Source: Fimbriimonadia bacterium (GTDB taxonomy: Bacteria > Armatimonadota > Fimbriimonadia > Fimbriimonadales > JABRVX01). From it: a DNA stretch of 64,000 nucleotides. The translations under genes and the position numbers were made by a program. The notes beneath the pieces are model-generated. The model saw nothing but the letters and a program-made list of their open reading frames with translations, did no database searches and had not been told where the DNA came from. The stretch lies in contig JBGPGO010000011.1 of NCBI GenBank assembly GCA_041483895.1, positions 32,001 to 96,000 on the forward strand, read 5' to 3'. Each line of letters begins with the position of its first letter. Within the stretch, counting starts at the first letter, position 1. Of this stretch, positions 9,301 to 64,000 are shown in pieces.

Positions 9301-9607
9301 TGATGAGCGCGATTTGGTCGTCCGGCAGCGGGTTGAATCCCATTGGCATGCGCGGCTTATCGTCAAGACCGCGCAGGCGCCTGACCAACAGGCTGCGGTC
9401 GCCCTCCCCGGGGATGATCAGCGCGCCGCTCTGACCGCCCTTGCGTATTCCCTCGGTCGCGTCCAACCGCATGCCCGCCGACTGCAACCCTGCCCCGTGG
9501 CATTGGGCGCAGTGGGCCTTCAGGACCGGCAGGATGTCCTTGGCAAAGTCGACCTTGGGTTTTTGGGCGGATCCGCTCAGCAGCGCAAAAACAGAAAGTG
9601 CGCCCAT
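6395..9607 (-). CDS. Planctomycete cytochrome c / DUF1549 (PSCyt2) / DUF1553 (PSD1) domain protein
   Basis: [80 protein letters not shown]. Confidence 0.93.
7078..7231 (+). repeat. Two family B palindromic elements inserted in-frame in the DUF1553 gene
   Basis: GAAGAACCCCCACCCAACCCTCCCCCTTTTTCCG...CGGGAAAAAGAGGGAGGGC and ACCCCCACCCCGACCCTCCCCCTT...AAGAGGGAGGGGGGC. Confidence 0.88.
9121..9192 (-). repeat. Family B palindromic element inserted in-frame in the DUF1553 gene
   Basis: Reverse complement nearly identical to 6324-6392; encodes [24 protein letters not shown]. Confidence 0.9.
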
Positions 9608-23068: not shown

Positions 23069-24574
23069 TTACTGCATCAGGTCTTCGACAACGTGCCCGT
23101 GGACATCGGTGAGTCGAAAATCACGTCCCTGGTACGGGATGGACAGGAGCTTGTGGTCTACGCCCATCAGCCACAGCAGCGTCGCTTGCAGATCATGAAC
23201 GTGGACCGCGCCATTGGTGAAATCCTGCTTGGTCGGTTCCATCGCGTTGCCGTCCGGATCGGCGATGTTGTAGCCATAGTCGTCCGTTCGTCCGTAGGTC
23301 GTTCCCGCCTTCACGCCCCCGCCCGCCATGAACACGGTGAAGCAGCGCGGATGGTGGTCGCGGCCGAAGACGGCAGGCTCCAGCGGACCCTGCGAGTAGC
23401 TGGTGCGCCCGAACTCGCCGCCCCACACAATCAGCGTGTCTTCCAGCATTCCTAAACGCTTGAGGTCCTTGATAAGCGCGGCGGTCGGTTGGTCCGTGTC
23501 TTTGCATTGGACCGATATTCCGCTGACCAGGCTGCCATGCTGATCCCAGCCTTGGTGATACAGTTGGATAAAGCGGACTCCTTTTTGCGCCATTCGGCGG
23601 GCGAGGAGGCAGTTGGCGGCAAAGGTGCCCGGCTTCCGCGAATCCGGTCCGTACAACTCAAATACTTCGTTCGGCTCTTTGCTGAGATCGGTGACATCGG
23701 GGACGCTTGTCTGCATTTTATAGGCCATTTCGTATTGGGCGATTCGGCTCTCGATTTCGGGATCGAGCTCCTTTTCATATTCGTGCCGATTCAATTCGCT
23801 CAATCGATCCAGCATCGCCCTGCGACCCGAGCCGCAGATTCCATCGGGGTTGGACAGATACAGAACCGGTTCTTTGCCCGCGCGGAATCGCACGCCCTGA
23901 TATCGGGAGTCCAAGAAACCGCTTCCCCATAACCTGGAGTAGAGCGGCTGGTCGCCCTTGCCGACGCTTGCGAGCACGACGAAGGTGGGCAGGTCTTCGT
24001 TCATCGTACCGAGGCCGTAGGAGACCCATGAACCGAACGAGGGTCGGCCGGCGATCTGGCTGCCGGTCTGGAAAAACGTGATTGCGGGATCGTGATTGAT
24101 CGCTTCAGTGAACATGGACTTGACGAAGCAGAGATCGTCGGCCACGCCGGCGATATTTGGAAGGATCTCGCTGAGCCAGGCCCCTCCCTGTCCGTGTTGG
24201 GCGAACTTGAACGGCGAGCCGGCGAGGGGAATGACGCTTTGGTGCGCGCTCATAGTGGTGAGGCGCTGGCCGTGCCGGACGGCTTCCGGGAGCGGCTGGC
24301 CGTGCATTTTGTTGAGGAGCGGCTTGTAGTCGAACAGGTCCTGTTGCGCGGGCCCGCCTGCCTGGAAGAGGTAGATAATCCTCTTGGCCTTTGCGGGATG
24401 GTGGAGCTTGCCCAGGACCCCGTTGACCTTTGTATCGTCGCCGAGTACCCAGCTTGGCATGAGGGATGCCAGGGCAAGCGCCCCAAACCCCTGCGCGGCC
24501 CGGCCAAAGAACTCCCGTCGGGTGAGGCCGACGAGGTCGTCAATCCTCATTCGTTTGTCTTCAGGTCTCATCAC
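23069..24574 (-). CDS. DUF1501 family protein (Tat-exported)
   Basis: TRREFF; AKRIIYLFQAGGP; INHDPA; WGGEFGRT; GRDHHP. Confidence 0.92.
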   Translation of the reverse strand: MMRPEDKRMRIDDLVGLTRREFFGRAAQGFGALALASLMPSWVLGDDTKVNGVLGKLHHPAKAKRIIYLFQAGGPAQQDLFDYKPLLNKMHGQPLPEAVRHGQRLTTMSAHQSVIPLAGSPFKFAQHGQGGAWLSEILPNIAGVADDLCFVKSMFTEAINHDPAITFFQTGSQIAGRPSFGSWVSYGLGTMNEDLPTFVVLASVGKGDQPLYSRLWGSGFLDSRYQGVRFRAGKEPVLYLSNPDGICGSGRRAMLDRLSELNRHEYEKELDPEIESRIAQYEMAYKMQTSVPDVTDLSKEPNEVFELYGPDSRKPGTFAANCLLARRMAQKGVRFIQLYHQGWDQHGSLVSGISVQCKDTDQPTAALIKDLKRLGMLEDTLIVWGGEFGRTSYSQGPLEPAVFGRDHHPRCFTVFMAGGGVKAGTTYGRTDDYGYNIADPDGNAMEPTKQDFTNGAVHVHDLQATLLWLMGVDHKLLSIPYQGRDFRLTDVHGHVVEDLMQ

Positions 24575-24575
24575 T

Positions 24576-27500
24576 TCACCGTTTCCATATTACCGCGTCG
24601 GAATTCATAACCGTTTGCACCATGACCGTCATCGCCGCAAGTTCAACGGGGTTCAGCGCCGAGTCCGCCTTGGAATCGCCGAAGGAGATCAGTCTGCGGG
24701 CAGAATCGGGGTCCAATCGAAACTGTCGCCGCTGCTCAATAAAAGTTTGCATAAGGAGCACGGACTCCCTGGCGTCCGGCGAGCGCCCCGCCAGCCGGAC
24801 GAATACGGTCTTGATCCGTGCCGCGTCCCCAGTGTTCATCTGCAACACGCGTTCGGCAAGCACACGGGCGGCTTCGACAAACTGCACATCGTTGAGAAGT
24901 ACGAGCGCTTGCAGCGGCGTGTTTGTCGTGGGGCGGCGCACGGTACAGGCTTCCCGCGAATTGGCGTCGAAAATCAGCATGCTGGGGACCGGGGAGGTGC
25001 GTTTCCACGTCGAGTAGATGCTTCGCCGATACAGCTCGGTCCCGGTGCTCTGGACAAACTGCGGTGTCATGCCGTTGTTCTCCGTCCAGATGCCGGCGGG
25101 CTGGTAGGCGTTGACCGGCGGTCCACCCATCTTGGGATTGAGAAGACCCGAAGCGGCCAGCACGGTGTCGCGCACCATTTCCGCGGACAGTCGCAGACTC
25201 GGTCCGCGCGCATAAAGCCGGTTCAATGGATCAGCGTCAATGAGCTTCTTCGTCCTCACGCTATCCTGCCGATAGGTGGAAGACAATACGATTTCACGTA
25301 TCAATTCCTTGACGTTCCAGCCGGAATCAATGAAGTGACGGGCAAGATAGTCGAGCAGTTCCGGGTGCGTCGGTCGCGATCCCTGAATGCCAAAGTTTTC
25401 GCTTGTCTCGACAAGGCCGACGCCGAACAGCATTTGCCAAATCCGATTGACCGCGACGCGGGCTGTCAGAGGATTATCCGGCCTGGTGACCCACTTTGCG
25501 AGGGCCAGGCGATCGTTGCGAGTGGTCGACCCCAACGCCGGCAGGGACTTCGGCACGCCTCGCGTCACACGATTTTCCGCTGTTCGCGGAGCGTCATATT
25601 GTCCCCGCCGCAAAACGTATGCGGGATTTGGTGTGGGCGCATCTTGCATCACGGATATCTCCATGATGCCCTCTTCGAAATTAGCGAGATCGGTCTGCGC
25701 TTTTTGCACGGCGGCTTGCGCGGACCTGGCCTGTTCATCCAGCGCTGAGATGTAATACTCGCGAAGACCTATTGCGGGTGATTTTAGGACCGCGGTAAGC
25801 GGCACGCCGTCATATAATTGGGTGATCTCCAAGGGACTCAGCGCACGCTGCGCGAACGTCAGCTCATCCAGCTTGCCGCCCTTGAACCCGGCGTCCCGAA
25901 ATCGCTGACCAAACGCCCAATCGCCGCCGCTGGGACCGAGGTCCCCGTACCCATTGATCTTCTTCCAAAGTTGGTCGACAATGATAGTGGTCTTTGCGGG
26001 GCGGCCGTCTATGTATAGCTGTAGGCCTGCCGCTCGTCCGCTGCCGTCCCACGACCAGCCGATGTGCGACCATGCGCTCTTTGGCACCTGACTCTGGGTG
26101 CGGATCGCCACCGCATTCCCGGGCCAATGCCGCATGACTCGCGCGGTCAGATAGCCGTTTTCCAGCATCAGATCGAAGCCGCAAAAACCGACGTCCGTTC
26201 CTCCGGTGCGATGCAGCAGAACCACCGGTCCGGTCTGCCGCGGGTCTGCAATCCAAAACGACCAGGTGAACGCCTCCCAGCGCTCTTTCGCCGGCAATCC
26301 ACGCACAGTGATTCCGTTGTCGCCGTCGAATTCCACGGCTTTCCCACTCTTGCCCGGCACCAGCTCGACATTTCCGAGCTTTGCCCCAAACGCCTTGCCG
26401 ACGCTGCTGGGAAACTTGTCGGCATCGATTGTGTCCAAAGAAATGTGGGCGACAACATCGGGGGTCTCCGCGCGAACGGGCCTGCCTGCCAACCAGTGTT
26501 TGTAGCGCGGTTCGGCGTCCTTTCCGGCTTGGTCGCGGGCGCGCAGAGCGGCGTCAGATTCCGAACGCAGTTTGCCGAGCTTTGCTTCCTGCTCAGGTGT
26601 CGGCAAGAGCAGCGAAGGGGTGGGCACGATCTCCGAGCTCAGCAGAAGGCCATATTCGTTGATCGAGTTGAAGTATGCGTAGAACTGGTAGTACTCCCTT
26701 TGCGTTATCGGATCGAATTTATGATCGTGGCAGCGGGCGCAGCCGACGGTCAGCCCAAGCATTGCCGTGCCAAACGTATCCACTCGATCTACCGCATATT
26801 CATTCTTGAACTCCGCGGCTATCGAACCACCCTCGTTCGATTGTCGGTGCAACCGGTTAAACGCGGTCGCAAGCCTCTGATCCCGCGTCGGTGAAGGCAG
26901 CAGATCACCCGCAAGTTGATTCATGAGAAACTGATTGTATGGCAGATTTTCGTTGAACGATTTGACGACCCAATCGCGATACGGCCACGTCGGCATCAGC
27001 AGATCGGACTGGTAGCCATAGCTGTCGGAATAGCGCGCGGCGTCGAGCCAATCGACGGAGATCCGTTCGCCATAGTGCGGACTTGCCAATAGCCGATCCA
27101 CAACGCGTTCATAGGCGTTGGCGCCGGTATCGGCCAGAAATGCCGCAATCTCATCTTCCGTAGGTGGAAGCCCGGTGAGATCGTAGGTGGCGCGCCGCAG
27201 CCATCGCTCTCTTGGCGCGGGTGGACTTGGCGAAAGATTCTCGCGAATCAAACGAGCGAGCACAAATCGATCGATATCGTTGCGGGGCCAATTGCTTTTG
27301 ACGTTCGGCACCGGGACGGAAGCGGGAAGCGATTCGAACGACCATAGCTTGCCGTAGTGCGCGCCTTCCGCGATCCATTGCGTAATCGTCGCAATCTCTT
27401 CCTTGCTGAGAGTCTTCCCGCTAAAGGTCGGCGGCATCTCATGAGCTGTAATCCGTTTCACGACGAGGCTCTTGCTCGGTTGCCCTGGGACGATGGGCCA

Positions 27501-27737
27501 TTTGCCGCCGCGATCCGCGAAGGCTCCTTCCGGCGAATCGAGCCGCATATTCACCATGCGGCTCTCCGAATCGGGGCCGTGACACTTGAAGCACTTGTCC
27601 GAGAGAATGGGAAGTATGTCGCGCGAAAAGCTGATCTTAGCCGGAGCGGCCTGCACGGCGTTAAACGCCGATGTTGTCAGCCAACTCATGCCGACAACCA
27701 GCAAAAAGAGCGTGGAGACCCCGCGACCGACCTTCAT
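24576..27737 (-). CDS. Planctomycete cytochrome c / DUF1549 / LamG / DUF1553 protein
   Basis: CFKCHG, CARCHDHKFDP, LamG-like WSHIGWSWDG...[22 protein letters not shown]; start placed at ATG 27737. Confidence 0.92.
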   Translation of the reverse strand: MKVGRGVSTLFLLVVGMSWLTTSAFNAVQAAPAKISFSRDILPILSDKCFKCHGPDSESRMVNMRLDSPEGAFADRGGKWPIVPGQPSKSLVVKRITAHEMPPTFSGKTLSKEEIATITQWIAEGAHYGKLWSFESLPASVPVPNVKSNWPRNDIDRFVLARLIRENLSPSPPAPRERWLRRATYDLTGLPPTEDEIAAFLADTGANAYERVVDRLLASPHYGERISVDWLDAARYSDSYGYQSDLLMPTWPYRDWVVKSFNENLPYNQFLMNQLAGDLLPSPTRDQRLATAFNRLHRQSNEGGSIAAEFKNEYAVDRVDTFGTAMLGLTVGCARCHDHKFDPITQREYYQFYAYFNSINEYGLLLSSEIVPTPSLLLPTPEQEAKLGKLRSESDAALRARDQAGKDAEPRYKHWLAGRPVRAETPDVVAHISLDTIDADKFPSSVGKAFGAKLGNVELVPGKSGKAVEFDGDNGITVRGLPAKERWEAFTWSFWIADPRQTGPVVLLHRTGGTDVGFCGFDLMLENGYLTARVMRHWPGNAVAIRTQSQVPKSAWSHIGWSWDGSGRAAGLQLYIDGRPAKTTIIVDQLWKKINGYGDLGPSGGDWAFGQRFRDAGFKGGKLDELTFAQRALSPLEITQLYDGVPLTAVLKSPAIGLREYYISALDEQARSAQAAVQKAQTDLANFEEGIMEISVMQDAPTPNPAYVLRRGQYDAPRTAENRVTRGVPKSLPALGSTTRNDRLALAKWVTRPDNPLTARVAVNRIWQMLFGVGLVETSENFGIQGSRPTHPELLDYLARHFIDSGWNVKELIREIVLSSTYRQDSVRTKKLIDADPLNRLYARGPSLRLSAEMVRDTVLAASGLLNPKMGGPPVNAYQPAGIWTENNGMTPQFVQSTGTELYRRSIYSTWKRTSPVPSMLIFDANSREACTVRRPTTNTPLQALVLLNDVQFVEAARVLAERVLQMNTGDAARIKTVFVRLAGRSPDARESVLLMQTFIEQRRQFRLDPDSARRLISFGDSKADSALNPVELAAMTVMVQTVMNSDAVIWKR

Positions 27738-27808
27738 GCCCACTAGGTTACCGAATCTTGAGCGATCATTGCGAATGGCTCCCATTCCGTCTATGTCACA
27801 ATGAGCGG

Positions 27809-51050: not shown

Positions 51051-54029
51051 TCAGGGCGATTGCCCCTTCATCAGGTAGTCGATGAGAGCCTGGTACATGT
51101 AGTCCGGCTTATTGAACGACGGCATCTGGGTTCCCGGGCTCACCGCTTGCGGGTCCTTCAGGAACCGGAACATCCAGTCCCGCTTCAGCCTCGCCGGTAC
51201 GAGGCCCAGGTCAGGGCCGAGTTTCTTGACGTCGCCCCCAACCACCATCTGCTTTCCGCCGACCGGATGACAGCTTTGGCACTTCAGATCGGCGAAGTAC
51301 TTGACCCCCGCAACGGCCAACGGATACACCAACTGTTCCGGCGGCGTGTACTCATAAGGTTCCGGCTGGTTGGACAGAGCCATCAGATACTCGGAAAGCT
51401 TCGTCGCCTCGGCATCGCTCAAGCGGAAATCGGGCATGCGGGCGTCTTGCCACCAACGTATTCGAAAGGGCCGTTTCAGGAACTTGAAAAGCCAGATGGG
51501 CTGAACGCGCTCTCCCTCCCTGGTCAGTTCCGGGCCTATTTTTCCTCCCTGGCCCGAGAATGTGTGACAGGCTGTGCAATCGTGTTGTGCGACGAGCCGA
51601 GCGCCCGCCACCAGTGGCGAATTCTCGTCCGCCATGCCCTGTTTATATTCGAGCGGCAGCTCTTGGGAGGTCAGCGAGAGCAGGTAGACCGCGATTGCGT
51701 TCACTGCGGCGGAATCGAGCCCAAACTTCGGCATGCGCGCCTTGAACTTGTCGGTGTCAAACGTCTTTGGATCCTTTATCTTGGCGAGCATCCAATCGTA
51801 CGTCGTTCGTTTGACCCCCTTGGCGTTGCCGAACTCCAGTAGGTCCGGTGTCTTGTCGCCCACGTGGGTAAGATCGGGCGCGGCCATCTTATAGAATCCC
51901 CGGATGTCGTGGCAGCCGGCGCATCCCTTATCGGCGACTAACTTGGCGCCGGCCTCGGCAGCGACGGTGTCGCGAAAGTCGAGGGGCAGGCCACGTCTCG
52001 CCGGCATATCACTTCCCAGCGAGAGCAGGTAGTCGCCTATCAAGACGCATTCATCGCTCGTCAGACCGAACACCGGCATTCTGCCATTCGGTAGATAGGC
52101 CTTGGGATTCTGGAGCCATGCGTAGAGCCAATCGGGCCGAACCTTTCGGCGCAGATTCGTAAGTTCGGGGCCGACAGTCGCTCCCTGGCCGAGTATCGTG
52201 TGGCATCCCATGCATCCCAACGTCTTGACCAATCGTTGTCCCGCCGCCAACCGCTCGGGGGACGGCGTGGGCATGGTGATCGGTCTCTGGTTGGCGCTTG
52301 TCAAGCCCTGTTGGGTGAGCAGGTAGGTCGCCACTTCCCTCGCTTGCTCGTCGCTAAGACCCAGGTTCGGCATTCGGGCATCCAGCGAGTGGGACTTGGG
52401 GTCTTTGACCCATGGCGCCAGCCATTCGGGCCTCAGCTTCTCGGCGACTCGGTCCAAAGCCGGGCCGCGTTTCGTCGTGGGCAGACCAAGGGCCTCCACC
52501 TTGTGGCAGCCGATACAGCCTGAAGCCTGGAAGAGCTGTGAACCCTCCAAGTACGTACTTTCGCCGACCAGTTGCCTAGAGTCTCCGTGGCACTTTCCAC
52601 AGGATGCCTGTACGGTCTCGCCATACAGAAGCGGCCTACCTTTTCCGACCAATTCCCCGTGCGCCTCGGACCGAGAAAGCGGCGTACCCCAACCGCCATG
52701 ACACGTGACGCACCCGAACCTCTCGACGGGATGCCACTGAAGCATCTTGACCGGGTGCGATCGGAACGGCTCCGGTGCGTTCTGGAACGCGGGATTATCA
52801 ATCGCCAAGTGACAGGTCGTGCAGCGGTCGGTGGTTCCGAGCCGCTCGCAGTAGATCTGCTGGACCTCGCGACCCCCGTTCCTGTTCCTCTCAAGGCGAC
52901 CTTCCACCAGTCGCAGGTCTCGCCGCACCGTGGCGACATATTCATCCAACTTCCGCTTCGATTCCTGAAGGCGTTGGTTTTCCTCCGGCGTCCGGCCGTC
53001 GGCCTCGGTCTTGTTGAGCTCCACCACATCTCGGGCCCACCGGGCCATCTGGGCGGCGGCCTTTACGTCGCCCTTTGCGCTTTCGACCTTCACTCCCGCA
53101 AGCGCACTGACGAGCGATTGTTGGGCCTCCTTCAGTTGCAGATCTGCCAGGTTCCGCTCCGCGGTGGCTTCGGACGGAAGCCCGATCATTTCCCTGCTGT
53201 GAAGGCGTTCCGATACCAGCAGATTGCGTCTGGCCGCCTCAACGCTCGAGTCGGCTTCGTCCACGTTCACTTGGATGTTTGCTTCTTCGAACGTGAGGCT
53301 CAGGTCCTCCGGTGCTTTGGCGTTGGGATAGGTGGTCTCGGTCTCGGGTTGGGTAGCTGCAGGCGCCTGAGAGCCTTTCGGGGCTTTCGAATCCTTGAAC
53401 TCCTTGTCAAGCTCGTCCATCTCCTTGGAATTCGCTTGCTGCGCGCCCCCCGGAGTACTCCCCCCTTTGCGCTCGCCTTGGCCTGCAGTCTTGTCATTGG
53501 GAGCTGGAGCGAGTTTGGGAGGTTGTCCTCCGACAGCCCCATTGCCTGAGGAGCTCTTATCTTGAGCGAACTCCTTGTCGAGCTCATCTAGCTCGCTCTT
53601 GGAGGCAGGCGCCGCGTTGGTCGCAGCCCCCGAAACTGTCTTAGGTTCAGTTCCGCCCTCACCGCTCGCGGACCCTTTGGATTGCACTCGCAATTCCGCC
53701 TCACCGAGATCGGCGTCAACCGCTTCCAGCTCTCCGGAAGCTTGGTCGAACGCTGCTTGCTCGACCAGATAGCGTTTCTTGGCAACGAGATAGTCGCCGA
53801 CGTAGTCGGGGTGCTGGAGTTTCCTGAGCAACTCAGCCCGTTGCGACAGAAGAATCTTGCGTTCAAGCACCGCGAAGCGATCCGCATATCTGATCCATTC
53901 CGGATGGGTGTCCACCCACATGGAGATGCCCATGACGATCATCACAAGGACACTGGTGACGAGAAACACGAGGTTCATCTTGAGGCTAGTCTGCGAGGGT
54001 CGCGGCCGTCCTCTCACTGCCACGGCCAT
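51051..54029 (-). CDS. Membrane-anchored octaheme c-type cytochrome
   Basis: N-terminal TM; eight CxxCH: CTTCH, CVTCH, CGKCH, CIGCH, CMGCH, CAGCH, CTACH, CQSCH; last five in GPxL...MP class I-like domains. Confidence 0.92.
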   Translation of the reverse strand: MAVAVRGRPRPSQTSLKMNLVFLVTSVLVMIVMGISMWVDTHPEWIRYADRFAVLERKILLSQRAELLRKLQHPDYVGDYLVAKKRYLVEQAAFDQASGELEAVDADLGEAELRVQSKGSASGEGGTEPKTVSGAATNAAPASKSELDELDKEFAQDKSSSGNGAVGGQPPKLAPAPNDKTAGQGERKGGSTPGGAQQANSKEMDELDKEFKDSKAPKGSQAPAATQPETETTYPNAKAPEDLSLTFEEANIQVNVDEADSSVEAARRNLLVSERLHSREMIGLPSEATAERNLADLQLKEAQQSLVSALAGVKVESAKGDVKAAAQMARWARDVVELNKTEADGRTPEENQRLQESKRKLDEYVATVRRDLRLVEGRLERNRNGGREVQQIYCERLGTTDRCTTCHLAIDNPAFQNAPEPFRSHPVKMLQWHPVERFGCVTCHGGWGTPLSRSEAHGELVGKGRPLLYGETVQASCGKCHGDSRQLVGESTYLEGSQLFQASGCIGCHKVEALGLPTTKRGPALDRVAEKLRPEWLAPWVKDPKSHSLDARMPNLGLSDEQAREVATYLLTQQGLTSANQRPITMPTPSPERLAAGQRLVKTLGCMGCHTILGQGATVGPELTNLRRKVRPDWLYAWLQNPKAYLPNGRMPVFGLTSDECVLIGDYLLSLGSDMPARRGLPLDFRDTVAAEAGAKLVADKGCAGCHDIRGFYKMAAPDLTHVGDKTPDLLEFGNAKGVKRTTYDWMLAKIKDPKTFDTDKFKARMPKFGLDSAAVNAIAVYLLSLTSQELPLEYKQGMADENSPLVAGARLVAQHDCTACHTFSGQGGKIGPELTREGERVQPIWLFKFLKRPFRIRWWQDARMPDFRLSDAEATKLSEYLMALSNQPEPYEYTPPEQLVYPLAVAGVKYFADLKCQSCHPVGGKQMVVGGDVKKLGPDLGLVPARLKRDWMFRFLKDPQAVSPGTQMPSFNKPDYMYQALIDYLMKGQSP

Positions 54030-54721
54030 ACCCACTTCCATTCCGGACCACGGAAGTACACTCCTATGAGAACCAACACCGTCAACATCAGTACAAACGT
54101 AACGAACCATCGTCTGCGAGCCCGTTCGACGCGTTTCTCATCGTCGAACATCGGACTTAGGACCAGTTTCGACAGAAGCAATGCGCTGACGATGAGCAGG
54201 ATGAAAGTTGGAATTCCATAGACCCTAATCGCGTCGGCGAAATCCGGTGCGACGGTGTGAATCCCGTTCCAGATGAGCCCGTCGACCGTCGGCACGGCGA
54301 CCGTGGCGATGAGAAACCCGATGGGCAACAGCACCATCCTCCCGCGGAAGAACGGTATCGCGCAGGCGGTAAAAACGAGCAGACCCGGCACGACCACACC
54401 GGCGATGAATGGCGGCGAATAATGCAGAAGCTCCTGGAGCGAGAGGAAGTACCATGGCGCCTTCGCTGGATTCGGAGTCTTTCCCGGATTGGCGAGTTCC
54501 TCGAGCGGCGAGGCAAAAAGGAATGACACGAGAAGCAGGGCCGCGAACATCAACCCGAACGCCAGGAACTCCCGCGCGACGAGATGCGGATATGTGCTGA
54601 CTCGATCATCGTCCTGTTCGACCGTGTGCGGCGGCCTGCCCTCTATGAACCCGAGAATGCCGTATTCCTTGCCCTCCGATGGGTGCACGGAAGAGGTGTT
54701 ATCCTCGCCAGATTGCGTCAT
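54014..54721 (-). CDS. Rieske/cytochrome b complex subunit IV (cytochrome b C-terminal, PetD-like)
   Basis: YPHLVARE, PLEELANPGKTPNPAKAPWYFLSLQELL, AIPF, FRGPEW. Confidence 0.88.
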   Translation of the reverse strand: MTQSGEDNTSSVHPSEGKEYGILGFIEGRPPHTVEQDDDRVSTYPHLVAREFLAFGLMFAALLLVSFLFASPLEELANPGKTPNPAKAPWYFLSLQELLHYSPPFIAGVVVPGLLVFTACAIPFFRGRMVLLPIGFLIATVAVPTVDGLIWNGIHTVAPDFADAIRVYGIPTFILLIVSALLLSKLVLSPMFDDEKRVERARRRWFVTFVLMLTVLVLIGVYFRGPEWKWVWPWQ

Positions 54722-55572
54722 TCAAGTCCCCCCGAGAAACCGTCCTTGCGGACGCGCCAGAAATGGTAGGCCATGAGGACAAACACAGCGATCGGCAAGA
54801 AGATGACATGAAACACGTAGAACCGGATCAACGTCGGTTGGTCCACCGAGAAGCCGCCGAGAAGGACGTACCGGACTTTATCTCCGACCGCCGGGATCGC
54901 GCCGGCCATGTTCGTGCCGACCGTGATGGCCCAGTACGCAAGTTGATCCCATGGGAGCAGATACCCAGTGAAGCTCAGCAACATCGTGAGAACCAGCAGC
55001 ACCACGCCGACGACCCAATTCAACTGCCGAGGCGCCTCGTACGCCTTCTGCAGGAATACACGAAGCATATGGAGGCACACCACAATCACCATGGCGTTTG
55101 CCCCCCACCGGTGCATGTTCCGGAGTATCTGACCTAGAGACACGACGTTTCCCAGATCCACCATGTCTTTGTAGGCGTGATCGACCGAGGGCACATAGAA
55201 GAACATGAGCAGGACGCCGGTGACCGTCAGGATGAAGAACAGTCCTGCCGCCAAGCCTCCCAGCCCATAGGTGCAAGAGAACCTGAGGGCGCCTCGACTG
55301 ATCGTTGCCGGGTGCAAGTGCATCCAAGAACTGGTGATCGCGATTTCGGACTGTTCCTTTGGGGTCAACGGGAACGGCTTGGGAAATGCGCACTCCCAGG
55401 CCGTGGAACGGACGATGTCGTTGCGGGCCGCGTTCAGGAAACCCAACGAAAACAGGGTTCGAACCTTACCGAACCACCGCTTGTCAGCTAACTGCCGGCC
55501 CGACTCGGTTTGGGCCCAGGCGCCAGACAGCTTGCGCCACACTCTTCTCTCGTGAACCTGATCGGCGCTCAT
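54718..55572 (-). CDS. petB: Cytochrome b N-terminal subunit (cytochrome b6-like)
   Basis: LTVTGVLLMFFYVP, RNMHRWGA...HMLRVF, TGYLLPWDQLAYWA, RFYVFH...YHFWRVRKDG (four heme His). Confidence 0.88.
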   Translation of the reverse strand: MSADQVHERRVWRKLSGAWAQTESGRQLADKRWFGKVRTLFSLGFLNAARNDIVRSTAWECAFPKPFPLTPKEQSEIAITSSWMHLHPATISRGALRFSCTYGLGGLAAGLFFILTVTGVLLMFFYVPSVDHAYKDMVDLGNVVSLGQILRNMHRWGANAMVIVVCLHMLRVFLQKAYEAPRQLNWVVGVVLLVLTMLLSFTGYLLPWDQLAYWAITVGTNMAGAIPAVGDKVRYVLLGGFSVDQPTLIRFYVFHVIFLPIAVFVLMAYHFWRVRKDGFSGGLE

Positions 55573-56039
55573 GTTCGAAAAGTTTCCCGGTTAGAGAGTG
55601 TTGTCCTCTTGTCCACAATCAACTCCCCACCGGGGCCAAGCGATAGTTCATAGACAGCAAGTGGTTTTGGCGCGGGACCAGCGTAATTCTTACCGTTCTC
55701 ACGATAGCGGCTTCCGTGGCAGGGGCAGAAGAACCCAGTTCCCGAGGCGTCCGTCCGAACCGTACATCCCAGATGAGTGCACACCGACGAAAGCGCAAGG
55801 AACGAATTGCCGTCCCGAACGATGAACACCTTCTGGTCTTCTATATACGTAGCCGTCTTGTCGGGAAAATCCTGAGGCATCCCGGCCTTGAACCGCAGAG
55901 GCTTCCCGAACTGGACGTTCGGGATGAACGAACGGATGGATCCCAGCACAATCAGCGCCACGGAGACGAGGAACGTGATAAGCCCGCCCAGAAAGAACCT
56001 ACGTGACCACTGCTCTTCCCTTTGTGTGTCAAACGGCAC
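55569..56039 (-). CDS. Rieske [2Fe-2S] protein of Rieske/cytb complex
   Basis: Tat-like SRRFFL + TM; CTHLGC and CPCHGSRY; GPAPKPL. Confidence 0.93.
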   Translation of the reverse strand: MPFDTQREEQWSRRFFLGGLITFLVSVALIVLGSIRSFIPNVQFGKPLRFKAGMPQDFPDKTATYIEDQKVFIVRDGNSFLALSSVCTHLGCTVRTDASGTGFFCPCHGSRYRENGKNYAGPAPKPLAVYELSLGPGGELIVDKRTTLSNRETFRT

Positions 56040-57882
56040 GCTGCGCCTCTTCGAATCGTCCCATCCACATGGCGTCGACCGGACATCGTTCGATGCACAA
56101 TCCGCATCGCGTGCATTTTTCCTCGTCCTTCAGCATGACGGACCAACTACCGCCAGTTTCTTTGGACTCGTTCGACATTTCGTCAATAGAAAGTCCATGT
56201 TTGGCTTGGGCGAATTCAGCAACCTTCGAATCGGCATCAATCCTGTCGATGGAGACGATCTTGAGGCATCCGAAGGGACAAATGTCCACGCATCCGCCGC
56301 ACAACACACATTTGGCCGAATCCAGCATAGGGCTGCGGTTGCACTGAAGGCAGCGAGCCGCTTCCGCAACCGCCTGTTCCCGGGTGTAACCCGTTTCCAC
56401 CTCGCTGACCCCGGTTCGTCGGTCCAGCGAAATCGTCGGCACCAAATGGCGCGCCACTCTGTCATACTTTTCCGGCATTTGGTGCATCGGCAATCGAATG
56501 AGACGGGGCCGCTCGGTTTCCTCGTCACTTGGGGCCTGTCCCGACAAGTAGTGATAGATCGCCATTGCTGCCCTGCGACCGTCGGCGATGGCTTCGATGG
56601 CGGTCCGGGCGCCGAACACCACATCTCCGCCGACATACACGCCAGGAACGTTGGTCGCCATCGTTTTTGGCGACGCGTTGACGAAACCGGCAGGTGTCAT
56701 GTCCAACTTGACGTCGTCACCTAAGAACGAAAGGTCCGGCAGTTGCCCTACGGCGAGCAGCACCGTGTCGCATTCGAACAGTTCTTCCGTTCCGTGATCA
56801 AACGTCGGAGCGAAACGGCCTGCCTGATCGAAGACCGATGAGCACCGGACCGTCTCCAAACCGATACACTTGCCGTTGGCCGAGAGAATTCTCGTGGGGC
56901 CACGGGAGTTGTGAATGACGATACCCTCCCGAACGGTTTCGGCGATCTCTTCCTCATGGGCAGGCATCTCTTCCTCGGATTCGAGGCACACCATATGAAC
57001 CTCGGGGGCCCCCATACGGCGCGCCGCCCGCGCGACATCCAGCGCGGCGCCATAGCTCTTGTCGCCGGCGAAATCGATTCCCGCCTCGCGGGCCGCGGTA
57101 CGGGCCACGTCAACGGCGACATTGCCGCCTCCGATGACGACGACCTTCTTCCCGATCTCGACCTTATAGCCCAGATTAACGTTCAGCAGGAAGTCAATGC
57201 CGTTGATCACGCCGTCGGCGTCGACCCCGTCAATCCGCAACTGGCGCCCTTTCTGGGCGCCGACGGCCAGAAACACGGCTTGATAATCATGAAGCAGATC
57301 GGCGAAATTGATCTGCTCTCCGACACGGGTATTCGTCCGGATCTCAACGCCTTTGAGAAGGTTCTCAATCTCTTCCAGGAGCGCGGCTCTCGGAAGGCGG
57401 TATTCCGGTATGCCGAGAAACAGCATGCCACCGAGCTTCTCGGTTGCTTCGAACAGCGTGACTTCGTAGCCCAGCAGCGTAAGATCATGGGCGGCAGTGA
57501 CGCCGCTGGGACCTGCGCCGATGACAGCGACTCGCTTGTTCTGCTTCGGGTGGCGACGAAAATCGCCTCCGGTCCTTCGGCCTCCGGAGGCAAAGTCCAT
57601 GGCGGCTCTTTTCAACGCTCGGATAGAAAGTGGGGCGTCATGACACCCCCTGCGGCAGGCCGTCTCGCAGGGATGGCCGCAAATCCGCGCGCAAATATTT
57701 ACGAACGGATTTGGCTGGCTTGCGATGTCGTAGGCCGCATCAAAATCCCCCGATGCAATGGCTTCGATATACCCCTGCGCGTTCGTATGAACGGGACACG
57801 CAGCACGGCAATTCACAGTCTTTCGAAGCCAGCCTGCGTCAACCAACATCGCCTTGTATCTTTTACCGACGGCTTGTCCCAT
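56029..57882 (-). CDS. FAD- and FeS-containing NAD(P) oxidoreductase (GltD/NfnL-like) with C-terminal 2[4Fe-4S] ferredoxin domain
   Basis: CRAACP...ICARICGHPCETACRR; VIGAGPSG; VIGGGNVAVD; RCLQC; CVLCGGCVDICP; CTRCGLCIERCP. Confidence 0.9.
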   Translation of the reverse strand: MGQAVGKRYKAMLVDAGWLRKTVNCRAACPVHTNAQGYIEAIASGDFDAAYDIASQPNPFVNICARICGHPCETACRRGCHDAPLSIRALKRAAMDFASGGRRTGGDFRRHPKQNKRVAVIGAGPSGVTAAHDLTLLGYEVTLFEATEKLGGMLFLGIPEYRLPRAALLEEIENLLKGVEIRTNTRVGEQINFADLLHDYQAVFLAVGAQKGRQLRIDGVDADGVINGIDFLLNVNLGYKVEIGKKVVVIGGGNVAVDVARTAAREAGIDFAGDKSYGAALDVARAARRMGAPEVHMVCLESEEEMPAHEEEIAETVREGIVIHNSRGPTRILSANGKCIGLETVRCSSVFDQAGRFAPTFDHGTEELFECDTVLLAVGQLPDLSFLGDDVKLDMTPAGFVNASPKTMATNVPGVYVGGDVVFGARTAIEAIADGRRAAMAIYHYLSGQAPSDEETERPRLIRLPMHQMPEKYDRVARHLVPTISLDRRTGVSEVETGYTREQAVAEAARCLQCNRSPMLDSAKCVLCGGCVDICPFGCLKIVSIDRIDADSKVAEFAQAKHGLSIDEMSNESKETGGSWSVMLKDEEKCTRCGLCIERCPVDAMWMGRFEEAQRAV

Positions 57883-57889
57883 TGTTCAT

Positions 57890-59275
57890 TTAGAACGCGA
57901 AGCTAAACACCAACCCAAGCGCATTGTTCTTCCCTCCCGCATTCAGATCTTTGGTGTACTCTAGGCCCGCCCAGAAATTCGTCCTCAAATAGTAGGTGAC
58001 GTTGGCCGTGATTGCTTTGCTGAACAACCCTGAGTTCGCTGGGGCATCCAATAAGCTGCCGCCGTTGACGCGGTTGTATTTCAGCACGGCCATCGCCCGT
58101 TGTCCGATCACGCGGTCGAGCTCTATGAAATAGCCGTGCCAATTGACCTTCTCGCCGGTATCGAGCGGATTGTCCGCGCTCCCGGAGAGGTAGCTTGCCA
58201 GCAGGTTATACTGCTTGATCTTCATGCCGGGCGTCTTCTCAATCAGTTCGCCGAAGCTGATGCTGAGATCGACGCCGCCCATTCGGTAACTGTTGGTGGC
58301 GCCCGACTCCACCGTGGTCCGTCCGGCGAAGCCGACAAGACCGATGAAGGAGTCTCCGCCAAAATAGGCATTCAGTCGCGCAGAAAAGTCCCCGGCATCC
58401 CGTGCTGTGGCGCCACCGGCGCCGTTACTGTTGTAGAAACCGACCTCCCATAGGAAGCCCACCAGCGTGTTCATTGGGTCGGCTTCTTCCATTTCCGCCT
58501 TCTCCTTACCTTGGTCCTTACCTTGGTCCTTCGTGGGCTCGACGGAAGCTCCAGTGGAGTCGGAACCGTTGGAGTCACCCACATCCGGCTTTTCATTGTC
58601 TCCGCTAGGCTTGCTGTGGATCAGCTCCTTGCTCACAGACGAACCGAACGTGCCGAATAACCGCACACCCTGATGCTCTTCGGCAAGATTGACGCCGCCG
58701 AGGTCCAAGTCCTGCAAACTATAGCCGGAGCGCGTGAACAGGTCGTGCTCAGTGACGCCGTGCTCAACAGGATCCAACTTGCCGACTTGCAAGTTGGCAT
58801 CGGTTCCACCAAGGTAGGTTGCGATCAGAGAAACCTTCCCAACATCGGTCCCCCCGTCCTCTGTGGACACTTCGCCAAAGAATCCCAAGTCGGGGGCGAT
58901 GGAATCCGCCGCGAAGATTCGGAAAGCCCATGGGCTTTCAATGCTTGTGGGCGTCTGGTTGCCGTTGACGCTTCGATCAAGATTGAGGTCATTCTCTACA
59001 AGGATCGCAACCGGTATCTGATCCAACAAGCTCAGATTCTTGTCCTCGGGAATGGGTACCTTATTGACAGACCTGTCACCGGGCTGCTGGTAGCCATGAA
59101 GCTGAAAGTTCTTTCCAAATGCGTTCAGCTTCGGAACCGCCGTGTGGCAACGCAAACAGGTCGTTTTGTATTTTCTTGCGAAATACGGGATCGCGATCGC
59201 CTTCTGGAGCACTACTGCTTCACCAACTAACAACGTGGCCAGCGTGAGCCAAGCCACCTTTGATCTACAATACAT
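57890..59275 (-). CDS. Cyc2-like fused monoheme cytochrome c-porin (outer membrane)
   Basis: Signal peptide then IPYFARKYKTTCLRCHTAVPKLNAFGKNFQLHGY; beta-strand-rich remainder; C-terminal Phe (FSFAF). Confidence 0.8.
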   Translation of the reverse strand: MYCRSKVAWLTLATLLVGEAVVLQKAIAIPYFARKYKTTCLRCHTAVPKLNAFGKNFQLHGYQQPGDRSVNKVPIPEDKNLSLLDQIPVAILVENDLNLDRSVNGNQTPTSIESPWAFRIFAADSIAPDLGFFGEVSTEDGGTDVGKVSLIATYLGGTDANLQVGKLDPVEHGVTEHDLFTRSGYSLQDLDLGGVNLAEEHQGVRLFGTFGSSVSKELIHSKPSGDNEKPDVGDSNGSDSTGASVEPTKDQGKDQGKEKAEMEEADPMNTLVGFLWEVGFYNSNGAGGATARDAGDFSARLNAYFGGDSFIGLVGFAGRTTVESGATNSYRMGGVDLSISFGELIEKTPGMKIKQYNLLASYLSGSADNPLDTGEKVNWHGYFIELDRVIGQRAMAVLKYNRVNGGSLLDAPANSGLFSKAITANVTYYLRTNFWAGLEYTKDLNAGGKNNALGLVFSFAF

Positions 59276-59364
59276 ATCCTTCTCCTATCCCGAAATGCGG
59301 ATATCGCTTAACATTGGTCCGTGCGCGACCCGCCACCATCGAAAGGGCGGTCACGACACTTCTC

Positions 59365-59970
59365 CTAGGACACTTTGAATACCACCTTGGCCTCTCCTGA
59401 AGCCGGCACCTGCACCGTCTGGGTGGCAGCTGTGAAGTCTGGGTGCCAGACCTTGATCGTGTAGTTGCCCGGGGGAACGTTGGAAATTTTGAACAGACCT
59501 TTGTCATTGGTCACATCGAAAAATGGGTTGGGCAATATCACAATGTATGCCTTCATGTTTGCGTGGATGTGACACCGAATGGGCACGACGCCAATCTTGT
59601 CGAAGGTCACTTCAGACGAGTCGCCCTTCTTGGTTTGACTGACGTTGAAAGTTTTCGTACGCGAGCTTGAGAAAATGTTGTGAAAGAACGGATCTGAATT
59701 GTTAAAGTGAACTTTCGTACCCTTCATAATCGCCAAGACATGCGGGGCGAATTCCTTGTTCTTTTGATTCATATTGGCCCCCCGAGAGGACGGCGAGAAA
59801 GAGCCGGGGACTTCAGTCAGACTAACAACCGCAAATGGGACGCGTGTGGCGGTGCTTCCTTTGACGGATTCGACCATGCCGATAATATCGCCGTTCGCAT
59901 TGGCAATTGTAGTGGCCGCAAGCGCCAGTACAGCCGTAAGTGGAAAATAGAGCTTTTTCGGATGGAACAT
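59365..59970 (-). CDS. Periplasmic cupredoxin (type 1 Cu) with carboxypeptidase-regulatory-like C-terminal domain
   Basis: Signal peptide; NSDPFFHNIFS and CHIHANM; NVPPGNYTIKVWHP; SD GAGGAGG. Confidence 0.82.
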   Translation of the reverse strand: MFHPKKLYFPLTAVLALAATTIANANGDIIGMVESVKGSTATRVPFAVVSLTEVPGSFSPSSRGANMNQKNKEFAPHVLAIMKGTKVHFNNSDPFFHNIFSSSRTKTFNVSQTKKGDSSEVTFDKIGVVPIRCHIHANMKAYIVILPNPFFDVTNDKGLFKISNVPPGNYTIKVWHPDFTAATQTVQVPASGEAKVVFKVS

Positions 59971-60215
59971 TACAATGATACCTCCTCAAGTTGCACATAT
60001 TGTTTGTGCGGTCGCGCCGAGGGCAAGCGTAAATTGTCTTACGACGTTGCCTTTGCCCGGCAGCTTCCCTCGATCCAGCTATCCGACCCGCATTCTTGCA
60101 CGCGGCTGCACGGTTTCTCAAGCGGCTTTGGACTAATTCATCGTTAGGCTTGCTCCGTCAGCTTCGCTTGTAATAAGAAATAATGACAGAATTGGTTTGG
60201 CGGTGGGCACGATCA

Positions 60216-60244
60216 AGAATACCCATTGATGGAGAGGTTGTCAA
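60216..60244 (-). promoter_or_regulatory. Putative sigma70 promoter of the redox operon
   Basis: Minus strand TTGACA-ACCTCTCCATCAATGGG (17 nt)-TATTCT. Confidence 0.55.
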
Positions 60245-61040: not shown

Positions 61041-62252
61041 GTGACATACATAGCAAATTTAGCCCGACGGCAGACTTCGCGGCCGGCGCTGGCAGCCCTA
61101 ATCGTACTCGCGGTCACCGCACAGGCGATGGCGGCAACCTATTCGGTCAACGTCGGTGCCATAAAGGCGAAGTGGGACGATGTGTCCGGAGCCAACTTCT
61201 CCGGCACCGGAATCACCTACTTATATGACGGCCAGGTGTTGATTGTCCTGCCGTCTGGATACGATTCGATCAAGTTCTCGGCGAACTGCTCTGCGGAGAA
61301 CACGTCCTGGTGGTGGTCAAGAGACTTCAAGTTCCAAATCAGAGTTACCGAGGTCAAGGACGGGAACCCGCCGTACATCGATGCGACGACAGCGGCTACC
61401 GGAGGCTTCAATATCGTCGGCCTCTGGGGTAAGAGCAGCGGCACCGTAACGTCTCCCACGGTTTATGTAGGGACCGGAAACTGGAAAATATTCCGTGTAG
61501 CAGTCTATGTGGAAATAGTGAACAAGAAGAACAGCGGATGGATCGGCAAGGGATTCCCTGTGTTCAAGTACCCATCCCGGATTTGTGGCCTAAGCGCATA
61601 CCGGTCGTGCGAGTGGATCCACGAGGCATACCAGCGCCGATGGGCGTTTGAAGCTCTATACAATGGCCAACTGGATATTACTGGGGGTTCATGGATAAGC
61701 ACGGATGAGCTTTGGTACGAATTCATCAATGCCTTGGGCGACGCCGCCAAAGATGATCCCGTCGAAGTAGGTTTCTGGGGCGTTCAAACGCTCCACAATG
61801 TGTTCAATGCATTCATCGCGGAGCTCAATATGTATATCTTGACCCAAGGTTGGAGATCCTCGTGGTGGACGCAGCTCCTGATGGGCGCGACCAACGACAT
61901 GAGGCTCAACTGCGCGAGCGAACAAGGCTACCTCGAACGGCTGTTTTATTCGTTGGACGATAAGGCAACCAAGATAAGCCAAGTCAAATCCATCGTGACA
62001 ACCGAAAGCAGCCTTTTGGCCAAATTCGGGAACTTCTCATATAGCGGCACCACCGTGTACGGCAAAAGTGGTGAGTACATTTTTTCAACGTACCTGACCA
62101 CTCAAAACTACTACCTGATGTTCTTCGGCACGAAGATCACGGACCCGGCCCTTGGCACGCTGAGGAGCCTAATGCAGTACTACTCGAATCTTATCGCGGC
62201 CGACCAGACCATCGTCAATGGACGGACCAGTGACGCGGGCCTGTTGTATTGA
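61041..62252 (+). CDS. Secreted hypothetical protein (403 aa)
   Basis: SD AAGGAGG before GTG; signal peptide ending AQAMA; no domain recognised. Confidence 0.75.
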   Translation: MTYIANLARRQTSRPALAALIVLAVTAQAMAATYSVNVGAIKAKWDDVSGANFSGTGITYLYDGQVLIVLPSGYDSIKFSANCSAENTSWWWSRDFKFQIRVTEVKDGNPPYIDATTAATGGFNIVGLWGKSSGTVTSPTVYVGTGNWKIFRVAVYVEIVNKKNSGWIGKGFPVFKYPSRICGLSAYRSCEWIHEAYQRRWAFEALYNGQLDITGGSWISTDELWYEFINALGDAAKDDPVEVGFWGVQTLHNVFNAFIAELNMYILTQGWRSSWWTQLLMGATNDMRLNCASEQGYLERLFYSLDDKATKISQVKSIVTTESSLLAKFGNFSYSGTTVYGKSGEYIFSTYLTTQNYYLMFFGTKITDPALGTLRSLMQYYSNLIAADQTIVNGRTSDAGLLY

Positions 62253-63690: not shown

Positions 63691-64000
63691 CTACTTTCTC
63701 CTCCTGCGCAAACCCAATACGCCGATTGCGCCGACGGCTAGAGCGGCAAGTGAGCTAGGTTCGGGCACCGGAGTGCAATGATTCTCCCAGCCCCAGAAAA
63801 CTCCACCGTAGATTCTCGCCTGCTTGTTCCCGGTCTCGACCACTAAGTGCAGCTCAGCGTTCCAATAATGGTCCTTGCATCCGTCAGGCCGCTGCGAAAA
63901 GTCGTAGAAGCCGGTGCCGTTCGCAGCGAACCCGTCGTCATAGTACGGAGTCGTGGCTGTAGAGGCAACGTCTACGATATTCTCGACGACGCCGTGACCA
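63691..64000 (-). CDS. PEP-CTERM sorting domain protein, 3' part (begins outside window)
   Basis: ...HCTPVPEPSSLAALAVGAIGVLGLRRRRK*. Confidence 0.9.
   Translation of the reverse strand, partial: GHGVVENIVDVASTATTPYYDDGFAANGTGFYDFSQRPDGCKDHYWNAELHLVVETGNKQARIYGGVFWGWENHCTPVPEPSSLAALAVGAIGVLGLRRRRK

Follow-up and report, generated by a model that had tools for sequence, protein, structure and literature searches.

A Cyc2-type porin and a blue copper protein encoded in one operon with a predicted flavoprotein-bearing Rieske/cytochrome b complex in Armatimonadota

The stretch of DNA analysed here, referred to as the window, comprises 64,000 nucleotides from a Fimbriimonadia bacterium of the phylum Armatimonadota (assembly GCA_041483895.1, contig JBGPGO010000011.1, positions 32,001 to 96,000). 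It carries an operon of seven genes which, in order of transcription, are as follows.

59365 to 59970, minus strand: exported type-1 copper protein, a cupredoxin domain with a CarboxypepD_reg β-sandwich (invariant ligands, folds matched by the model)
57890 to 59275, minus strand: Cyc2-family fused monohaem cytochrome-porin (sequence motif, strands of the model, OprP match)
56029 to 57882, minus strand: cytoplasmic GltD/NfnL-like flavoprotein binding flavin adenine dinucleotide (FAD), with cysteines for four iron-sulfur (Fe-S) clusters (domains, alignment)
55569 to 56039, minus strand: Tat-type Rieske [2Fe-2S] protein (PDB matches 9RK4 and 9RK3)
54718 to 55572, minus strand: four-helix, b6-type cytochrome b (alignment; NCBIfam ExtP, below cut-off)
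54014 to 54721, minus strand: subunit IV, about five membrane helices (hydropathy, alignment)
51051 to 54110, minus strand: membrane-anchored octahaem cytochrome c, likely start 54029 (eight CxxCH motifs)

All seven open reading frames (ORFs) described in an earlier note on this DNA were confirmed at these coordinates, co-directional on the minus strand. The cupredoxin and porin genes are 89 bp apart and the porin and flavoprotein genes 7 bp; from the flavoprotein onward successive genes overlap by 11, 4, 4 and 97 bp, in agreement with the note's statement that the last six genes overlap or lie within 7 bp of each other. The final overlap is 16 bp if the octahaem protein starts at Met28 (54029), a start we favour because it fits a database protein of 992 amino acids (aa). 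From the octahaem stop to the likely start of the next gene there are 271 bp, and a terminator scan gave results at chance level (11 against 10.6). Pfam and NCBIfam identify cupredoxin and CarboxypepD_reg domains in the copper protein, Pyr_redox_2, Fer4_20 and Fer4 in the flavoprotein, and Rieske, cytochrome b and subunit IV domains in the proteins so named. The GC content of the seven genes and their GC content at third codon positions (GC3) are near the genome mean, and this ordinary GC3, together with the conserved gene order described below, rules out an artefact or a chance neighbourhood. The remainder of the window holds many glycoside hydrolases and much sugar transport, and the named homologues of its genes are from Fimbriimonadaceae and other Armatimonadota. 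That no terminal oxidase lies inside the 64-kb window was confirmed; the genome has an aa3-type oxidase elsewhere.

The context of the operon was surveyed within Armatimonadota, using 228 genomes of the class, our own included, and a sample of 401 genomes of the phylum. Here G000 is our own genome, C-numbers are its contigs and L-numbers are fetched genomic regions, mostly of relatives. An orthologue of the cytochrome b occurs in nine of the 228 genomes and a full-length orthologue of the porin in eight, our own counted in both, with all eight porins inside the operon. Gene order is kept in all eight other genomes of the class that have the cytochrome b, so the porin and cupredoxin are co-conserved with the Rieske/cytochrome b genes, as the earlier note required of its proposal. 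Six of the eight show all seven genes, whole in L010, L013, L014 and L133 and with the octahaem gene cut by a contig end in L011 and L012; the other two views are limited by their contigs, L009 beginning 214 bp before the porin and L050 within the flavoprotein. The two genomes of our own family lack the operon. Genes for CcmF-type haem lyases adjoin it in L010 (10425-12755) and L133 (13568-16249), and similar, unscanned ORFs flank it in L014 and L050.

In the phylum sample 35 of the 401 genomes match the flavoprotein. Nineteen regions were fetched: four have a distant, motif-bearing porin (21-32% identity) upstream, one is L050, four have Rieske and cytochrome b genes without a porin, and the flavoproteins of the remaining ten stand alone. 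The porin link is recurrent in distant lineages yet optional for the flavoprotein module, because four distant regions have the porin and four modules have none.

The porin, of 461 aa, carries AIPYFARKY-KTT-CLRCH-TAV-PKL near its N-terminus and ends in phenylalanine. It satisfies the published definition of Cyc2, AXPXFAR[Q/K][T/Y] upstream of a single CXXCH with PXL downstream (PMC8406198; this and the other papers cited were available in part, and what is said of them refers to those parts). The motif is unique to this porin among the 22,847 ORFs of the genome, its strict form is present in 24 of 30 close homologues, and all 26 aligned porins keep the haem motif unchanged. FARKY...PxLN bears a tentative likeness to Cyc2 cluster 3. 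No Pfam or NCBIfam model matches the porin, NCBIfam names none of its 69 homologues, and no solved sequence relative was found; in the ESM Atlas it meets hypothetical clusters from Acidobacteriota, Bacteroidota and Aminicenantota, one of them with 20% Porin_O_P. A profile of the porin retrieved 3017 cluster representatives at E values up to 0.001, with the N-terminal haem motif in 144 of the 148 new ones listed. Solitary porins with the Cyc2 motif abound in the class, where 27 more of the 228 genomes have matches at the level of the motif only, and the seven such loci viewed with 1.5 kb flanks (L002-L008) hold no operon genes and no respiratory neighbours.

A model of the porin built with 26 homologues has a mean predicted local distance difference test (pLDDT) value of 68, about 16 long strands and an N-terminal helix, residues 2-25, that resembles a signal peptide; the haem region is of low confidence in this single-chain model. 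Foldseek returned general porins, and the best structural match in a wide search is OprP (2O4V; Z 22.9, root-mean-square deviation 3.1, 297 residues aligned). OprO/OprP has been reported as the structural match of Cyc2 (PMC8406198). As modelled, the protein would share with Cyc2 a signal peptide (indicated by the helix only), a length of at least 365 aa and a 16-strand, OprO/OprP-like barrel. The likeness to Acidithiobacillus Cyc2, Mariprofundus Cyc2 PV-1 and Leptospirillum Cyt572 thus extends over signal peptide, motif, single CXXCH, PXL and OprP-like barrel (PMC8406198). Our system differs from theirs in being linked to a quinol-oxidizing complex with a flavoprotein rather than to an oxidase, and in its partner, a two-domain, amicyanin-like cupredoxin rather than rusticyanin.

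That partner is a type-1 (blue) copper protein, judged by its fold and by ligands His97, Cys133, His136 and Met139, which are invariant in 44 of 44 aligned homologues. The ligand loop, Cys-x2-His-x2-Met, is of the amicyanin type, the folds nearest to the model (pLDDT 91.6) are amicyanin, plastocyanin and pseudoazurin, and the CarboxypepD_reg β-sandwich wraps the cupredoxin domain as a second domain. Rusticyanin is a single domain with a long Cys-x4-His-x4-Met loop. It was not among the five matches at E up to 1 in a PDB sequence search, nor among the fold matches shown. The earlier note had cast the blue copper protein as a counterpart of rusticyanin; because loop and fold are of the amicyanin type, and given the extra β-sandwich, we reject that identity. 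A paralogous cupredoxin-CarboxypepD_reg gene lies elsewhere in the genome (L113:2360-5970, G000:C12), followed by a barrel-like ORF without a haem motif and a GGDEF/phosphodiesterase protein.

The physical link between the two proteins, for which multimer prediction had been suggested, is supported in a model. Mature porin and cupredoxin gave a complex score of 0.62, as against 0.00 for the best of three controls; among solved pairs 116 of 157 come up to this mark, among mismatched pairs 2 of 215, a rough calibration in which our own alignments were used. The runs share at least 62% of contacts and the pLDDT of the partners is at least 88. Porin residues 35-38, 42 and 64-70 face cupredoxin residues 93-98 and 132-138, an interface that sets the copper-ligand loop against the porin haem motif. 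The model supports binding of the cupredoxin by the porin.

In the flavoprotein, Cys25/29/64/68/72/76, 511/514, 525-535 and 590-600 would provide for four Fe-S clusters. The FAD-proximal cluster has three cysteines and a lysine, Lys91, as in the Kuenenia type; stand-alone paralogues carry Lys91 too and hence it is not specific to the Rieske-linked type. All 12 Rieske-linked flavoproteins have CLES or CLEA in place of YRR, which is present at that site in the closest solved relatives (9BOV/9BP5, 9N5U, 8OH5); three aligned, unlinked paralogues differ. Rossmann sites without a basic motif of the YRR type favour NAD(H). Since CLES or CLEA stands where NADP-linked relatives have YRR, the sequence points to NAD(H) more than to NADP(H).

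Members of the GltD/NfnL/Bfu family (9BOV, 9N5U, 8OH5, 4YLF, 2VDC) share the Rossmann FAD domain and N-terminal Fe-S domain. Ours differs by CLES for YRR, by an extra C-terminal 2x[4Fe-4S] domain and by the position of its gene between those of porin and Rieske protein. The small subunit of glutamate synthase, GltD, was rejected as an identity: YRR is absent, scores are below all GltD cut-offs and no large-subunit gene adjoins. A metagenome scan with the flavoprotein returned 49 loci at 32-42% identity that resemble generic GltD relatives, and plasmid searches gave four distant flavoproteins and one weak match to subunit IV, without the operon. Stand-alone flavoproteins, 38-41% identical (L049, L051, L053-L056), are common in one family (22 of 29 genomes), without linkage to the cbb3-linked Rieske/cytochrome b locus that this family has. 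In L011 (2227-6889), immediately upstream of the operon, 2-oxoacid:ferredoxin oxidoreductase genes adjoin another GltD-like flavoprotein, whose RKTR motif is basic; this locus also has an MbnH-like di-haem gene.

The best PDB matches of the Rieske protein are 9RK4 (E 1.6e-27) and then 9RK3, which we take to be the Kuenenia Rieske proteins of PMC12954380. It carries Ser110 and Tyr112 (HGSRY), the serine invariant in 14 of 14 sequences. In Kuenenia, Ser and Tyr near the cluster are linked to a potential of +303 mV (PMC12954380), and our Rieske protein is predicted to be of high potential. The cytochrome b has haem b ligands His154/168/255/270 and an extra histidine, His85, which with Arg275 and Lys276 is invariant in 13 of 13 cytochromes b, aligned without any from Kuenenia. 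In the anammox type an extra histidine serves a b haem at the dimer interface and is accompanied by a C-terminal Arg/Lys; His85 might be its counterpart. Hydropathy indicates four segments in cytochrome b and five in subunit IV, one of the five weak. Subunit IV has the quinol-oxidation motif APWY and keeps His46 and Glu51 in 10 of 10 sequences. The anammox type binds haem c_n through the cysteine of a CxGG motif, near a Glu and a His of subunit IV. The cysteine for haem c_n in cytochrome b is replaced by Gly (YGLGG) in a clade of eight, with support of 100/99, while the sister row, L133, retains it (YCLGG); cbb3-linked relatives without a flavoprotein also lack it.

The octahaem cytochrome comprises a long helical stalk, three closely spaced haems and, after these, five domains of class I, in each of which a Met-Pro motif would supply a ligand. 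Because of these five motifs we consider it a carrier and not catalytic; the repeated domains and Pfam matches of Cytochrom_C types rule out the catalytic octahaem enzymes HAO, OTR and ONR, which are marked by an HAO-type haem core whose catalytic haem is open. Over 516 aa the protein shares 31% identity (E 6e-81) with a 954-aa cytochrome of Candidatus Brocadia that has the same 3+5 haem spacing, and it is presumably an orthologue of Kustd1485. Similar octahaem proteins occur in Nitrospirota, Nitrospinota, Acidobacteriota and Bacteroidota.

A likeness to the Rieske/cytochrome b clusters of anammox planctomycetes had been suggested, and the Rieske matches and the Brocadia octahaem uphold it. 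Flavoprotein-linked cytochromes b form subfamily G (PMC5600118). Kustd1480-1485 and Kuste4569-4574 of Kuenenia stuttgartiensis, which belong to it, are alike in the split cytochrome b, the five-helix subunit IV, the four-cluster cytoplasmic flavoprotein with FAD-proximal lysine, the high-potential Rieske protein and the long-stalk octahaem (PMC12954380, PMC5600118). They differ in that ours has Gly for the haem c_n cysteine, the flavoprotein gene first, and a Cyc2-type porin and cupredoxin ahead; our host is a heterotroph in which no anammox or carbon-fixation marker was found. Judged from sequence, the five genes are a variant of the anammox complex, and we call it this rather than a plain member of the Kustd1480-85 type because of the Gly replacement.

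The function of the Kuenenia complexes is only proposed, with NAD(P)H production preferred (PMC12954380), and the same could be asked of ours. Menaquinol oxidation would then send one electron by way of Rieske, octahaem and cupredoxin to either the porin or an oxidase, and the second electron would be driven along the b haems and the chain of Fe-S clusters and reduce NAD+. The high-potential Rieske residues are present, and loss of the c_n cysteine would remove a competing quinone reduction, the main problem named for this proposal, which is the favoured one in Kuenenia (PMC12954380); against this, cbb3-linked relatives without a flavoprotein lack that cysteine too. We estimate, with general values for menaquinone and membrane potential, that a sink near +200 mV would yield about 280 mV from menaquinol, less than the 250 mV plus membrane potential needed for NAD+. 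Such a reaction would also be of little use to a bacterium that degrades sugars and has both complex I and PntB. We regard this bifurcation as distinctly unlikely here.

Where do the electrons go in related modules? Fifty-one genomes have a related subunit IV and 15 regions were fetched. L150:2137-10737 and L154:7794-16713 encode Rieske, cytochrome b, subunit IV, octahaem and a cupredoxin of the same family, ligands intact, followed by CoxB and CoxA. In L140 and L143 the homologous module is followed by cbb3 subunits (L141, L142 and L151 look alike but are unscanned), in L144 and L145 by an enzyme of dimethyl sulfoxide (DMSO)-reductase type II; L148, L149 and L152 have no terminal gene in view. 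The module of L045 ends in a distant ExtKL-like cytochrome, a type that reduces polysulfide in Geobacter (PMC13510729). As these modules run into oxidase, molybdoenzyme or ExtKL-like genes, the Rieske/cytochrome b module tends to end in an acceptor enzyme and, by analogy, the porin would fill that slot here.

Some of these loci are of interest in their own right. The L150/L154 run is a candidate aerobic chain with the two-domain cupredoxin as carrier. L045:1315-15323 combines a Cyc2-motif porin, QrcABCD-like genes, the flavoprotein-Rieske-cytochrome b module, a hexahaem and an ExtKL-like pentahaem cytochrome, in a genome with acetyl-CoA synthase. In L058, L144, L145, L057 and L062 the flavoprotein module has a fusion of cytochrome b and subunit IV; a Tat-type enzyme of DMSO-reductase type II comes next in three of them, and the flavoprotein of L144 is split in three pieces.

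The Geobacter sulfurreducens cluster extHIJKLMNOPQS, a partial precedent, likewise brings together porin, Rieske, cytochrome b, subunit IV-like and multihaem proteins (PMC5877670). Three of our proteins match its NCBIfam models, all below cut-off (ExtP, 278.2 bits for a cut-off of 290, by the cytochrome b; ExtQ, 52.7 for 150; ExtS, 82.9 for 100). As described in the passages available, that cluster has no flavoprotein or cupredoxin, while our operon has neither the rhodanese ExtH nor the ExtKL selenocytochrome. Since the Geobacter cluster serves selenium/sulfur reduction (PMC5877670, PMC13510729) and our cytochrome b scores just below the ExtP cut-off, the porin might let through or sense some small substrate of the periplasm, as a channel or a redox sensor, a role proposed for ExtI of Geobacter, with the complex feeding a periplasmic reductase encoded elsewhere. 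We find this highly doubtful. The paralogous cupredoxin beside the haem-less barrel-like ORF and GGDEF protein fits such a role, as do the flavoprotein modules without a porin in 4 of 19 regions, but the haem motif of the porin is invariant in 26 of 26, the model places the copper site on it, and a rhodanese or ExtKL gene is found in none of the nine close operons.

The host genomes bear on direction. None of the nine close operon genomes (89-100% complete) yielded a RuBisCO, ATP-citrate lyase or acetyl-CoA synthase domain; four distant genomes gave two weak RuBisCO-like matches, one partial citrate-binding match and one acetyl-CoA synthase. All 13 genomes tested, nine close and four distant, have a haem-copper oxidase. 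That of our own genome is aa3-type and has a haem c motif; its genes adjoin those of alternative complex III (ACIII; contig C13). The genome also has menaquinone (futalosine) genes, PntB, complex I with NuoF and two NuoD, two DmsE-like decahaem loci and three further loci with cytochrome b, whereas searches for bd oxidase, Rnf and FeFe hydrogenase gave no match. The decahaem loci (L119:3875-7905, G000:C9; L121:1689-4174, G000:C18) encode DmsE/MtrA-like cytochromes, with nine motifs counted, each followed by a barrel-like ORF of 550-624 aa without a Pfam match, and L119 also holds a UshA-like hexahaem gene. The two loci, with their barrel-like neighbours, suggest an electroactive cell. Other redox loci are L114:11970-17950 and L115:3414-7684 (G000:C7), an unusual candidate for a reductase of nitrate type, where genes for an 813-aa molybdoenzyme of DMSO-reductase type II lacking an evident Tat signal, a 639-aa fusion of Fe-S protein and haem c, a Rieske protein and a long cytochrome b lie close to NarK and NnrS-like genes; L116:2030-4976 (G000:C15), with Rieske, long cytochrome b and nine-haem cytochrome; and L123:2288-3592 (G000:C8), where a haem c domain is joined to cytochrome b in one protein.

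The earlier note had invoked the Fe(II) oxidation route of Acidithiobacillus. Inward flow would mean that the porin haem is reduced by Fe(II) and that the cupredoxin branches to the aa3-type oxidase and to the octahaem, with menaquinol and NADH formed uphill, a source of additional energy for a mixotroph. The porin fits the Cyc2 definition, the tested Cyc2 proteins are Fe(II) oxidases, the cupredoxin docks on the porin in the model, an oxidase is present in 13 of 13 genomes and the same cupredoxin family adjoins CoxB in L150 and L154. On the other hand, an oxidase gene is absent from all nine close operons and a carbon-fixation marker from all nine close genomes, the function of divergent, cluster-3 Cyc2 homologues is called most uncertain (PMC8406198), and Cyc2 homologues also occur in Fe(III)-reducing taxa (PMC6344600). 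With no carbon-fixation marker (0 of 9) and PntB to supply NADPH, reverse flow to NAD(P)H is without evident use. We rate inward Fe(II) oxidation unlikely, while giving it serious attention; the indirect evidence, including the oxidase-linked octahaem and cupredoxin of relatives, does not bear out the uphill route of the Acidithiobacillus type.

Upstream of the operon there are two candidate regulatory elements.

60216 to 60244, minus strand: candidate sigma-70-like promoter, TTGACA-17-TATTCT (10 of 12 consensus matches)
60169 to 60188, no strand assigned: candidate 20-bp palindromic operator, TGTCRT-N8-AYGACA, just downstream of the promoter candidate

The promoter candidate is weak alone, five such sites being found against 3.5 +/- 1.9 by chance. 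The palindrome recurs in five of seven orthologous upstream regions at no more than two mismatches, compared with a mean of 0.08 in shuffles. Scored with a matrix built without it, the window site has 17.0 bits, the 99.6th percentile of 3408 upstream regions. A matrix scan of the genome finds 48 sites, mostly intergenic, versus 4 and 9 in shuffles. Sites precede CBS-only, USP, baeRF and malic enzyme genes, a DmsE-like locus and a LuxR-family gene (G000:C1:442629-443387), a candidate regulator; the aerobic ACIII-oxidase operon has none. A mix of CBS, USP and baeRF genes is reminiscent of low-oxygen regulons. The conserved operator is thus a lead that may tie the operon to stress or low-oxygen-type genes. 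No FNR- or CRP-like box was found upstream of the operon at up to two mismatches.

Taken together, we favour outward electron flow. By this scheme cytoplasmic NADH would reduce the FAD of the flavoprotein, and from there electrons would run along its four Fe-S clusters, enter cytochrome b on the cytoplasmic face, perhaps by way of a haem held by His85, and pass to menaquinone. A Q-cycle would oxidize menaquinol at the APWY site and send the high-potential electron from the Rieske protein through octahaem, copper protein and porin haem to the cell exterior. At times of oxygen shortage the acceptor there might be humic matter or Fe(III) bound to organic compounds. Assembly of flavoprotein with cytochrome b is presumed by analogy with anammox, where the subunits of the Kuenenia complexes co-migrate (cited in PMC12954380); electron transfer from octahaem to cupredoxin and low-oxygen induction of the operon are likewise presumed. 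The haem of Cyc2 PV-1 is at +208 mV (PMC8406198), and with this as a guide flow from NADH to the porin would be strongly downhill. Outward flow is likelier than Fe(II) oxidation since octahaem and cupredoxin precede the oxidase in relatives and carbon-fixation markers number 0 of 9. On such analogies outward flow in any form is, on balance, the probable direction. The full respiratory wire fed by NADH falls just short of an even chance, and that a single operon encodes a complete NADH:extracellular-acceptor oxidoreductase, with flavoprotein entry, Q-cycle coupling and exit through a Cyc2-type porin, is a tentative proposal that we would sooner doubt than assert.

Several observations weigh against this scheme. 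If the values of relatives hold, transfer from a Rieske centre near +300 mV to a porin haem near +200 mV would be slightly uphill. Every Cyc2 tested biochemically, as reported in the passages available, oxidizes Fe(II) (PMC8406198, PMC13741234), and refilling the quinol pool with NADH through such a complex is held to be a waste of energy (PMC12954380). The genome also encodes NuoF and two NuoD. Loss of the haem c_n cysteine may remove the quinone-reduction site that the mechanism needs, yet it cuts both ways, since cbb3-linked relatives that have no flavoprotein share it. The argument on direction is by analogy only, for no flavoprotein accompanies the oxidase-linked modules and a molybdoenzyme of type II may be an oxidase or a reductase. 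As all 13 genomes have a haem-copper oxidase, a rusticyanin-like branch to O2 is possible. Unrelated exported proteins follow many of the top palindrome sites, no site stands before NarK or the nitrate-type molybdoenzyme, and we caution that the regulon link is only a lead because the gene families were chosen after seeing the scan matches. A low-yield electron sink is nevertheless plausible for a heterotroph short of acceptors.

Elsewhere in the window, planctomycete-cytochrome genes of the DUF1549/DUF1553 kind occur as two pairs, accompanied by DUF1501 partners, at 334-1893, 6395-9607 and 23069-27785. A KAP-family P-loop NTPase, possibly a defence gene, occupies a stretch of lower GC (about 52%) at 2075-5716, an exported-looking ORF of 403 aa without a Pfam match is at 61041-62252, and a PEP-CTERM-like tail lies at the window's end, at 63691-63999.

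The seven-gene combination was not found described in the literature searched; subscription papers, operon maps given only as figures (Fig. S1 of PMC5600118) and bioRxiv supplements may hold the cluster. The passages available of PMC10654088, PMC13741234, PMC9386147, PMC11535203, PMC9671151 and bioRxiv 855817 do not describe it. A cluster-3 Cyc2 is recorded in one Armatimonadota genome, without gene context in the part available (PMC9671151), and Cyc2 homologues are enriched in a humic bog and present in Fe(III)-reducing taxa (PMC6344600).

Two open questions meet in this operon: the role of flavoprotein-bearing Rieske/cytochrome b complexes, unproven even in anammox bacteria, and the role of divergent Cyc2 proteins in heterotrophs. 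On the first, sister operons with and without the haem c_n cysteine provide a natural comparison for the bifurcation proposal. On the second, the predicted contact with the cupredoxin points to a partner of a Cyc2 protein and to the surface where they would meet. In metagenomes Cyc2 commonly serves as a marker of iron oxidation. If electrons are indeed exported, counts of iron oxidizers based on Cyc2 would be wrong for organic-rich habitats, where many hits would be electron exporters; Cyc2 would be a terminal reductase in heterotrophs, and an overlooked route for respiring humic matter or chelated Fe(III) would exist.

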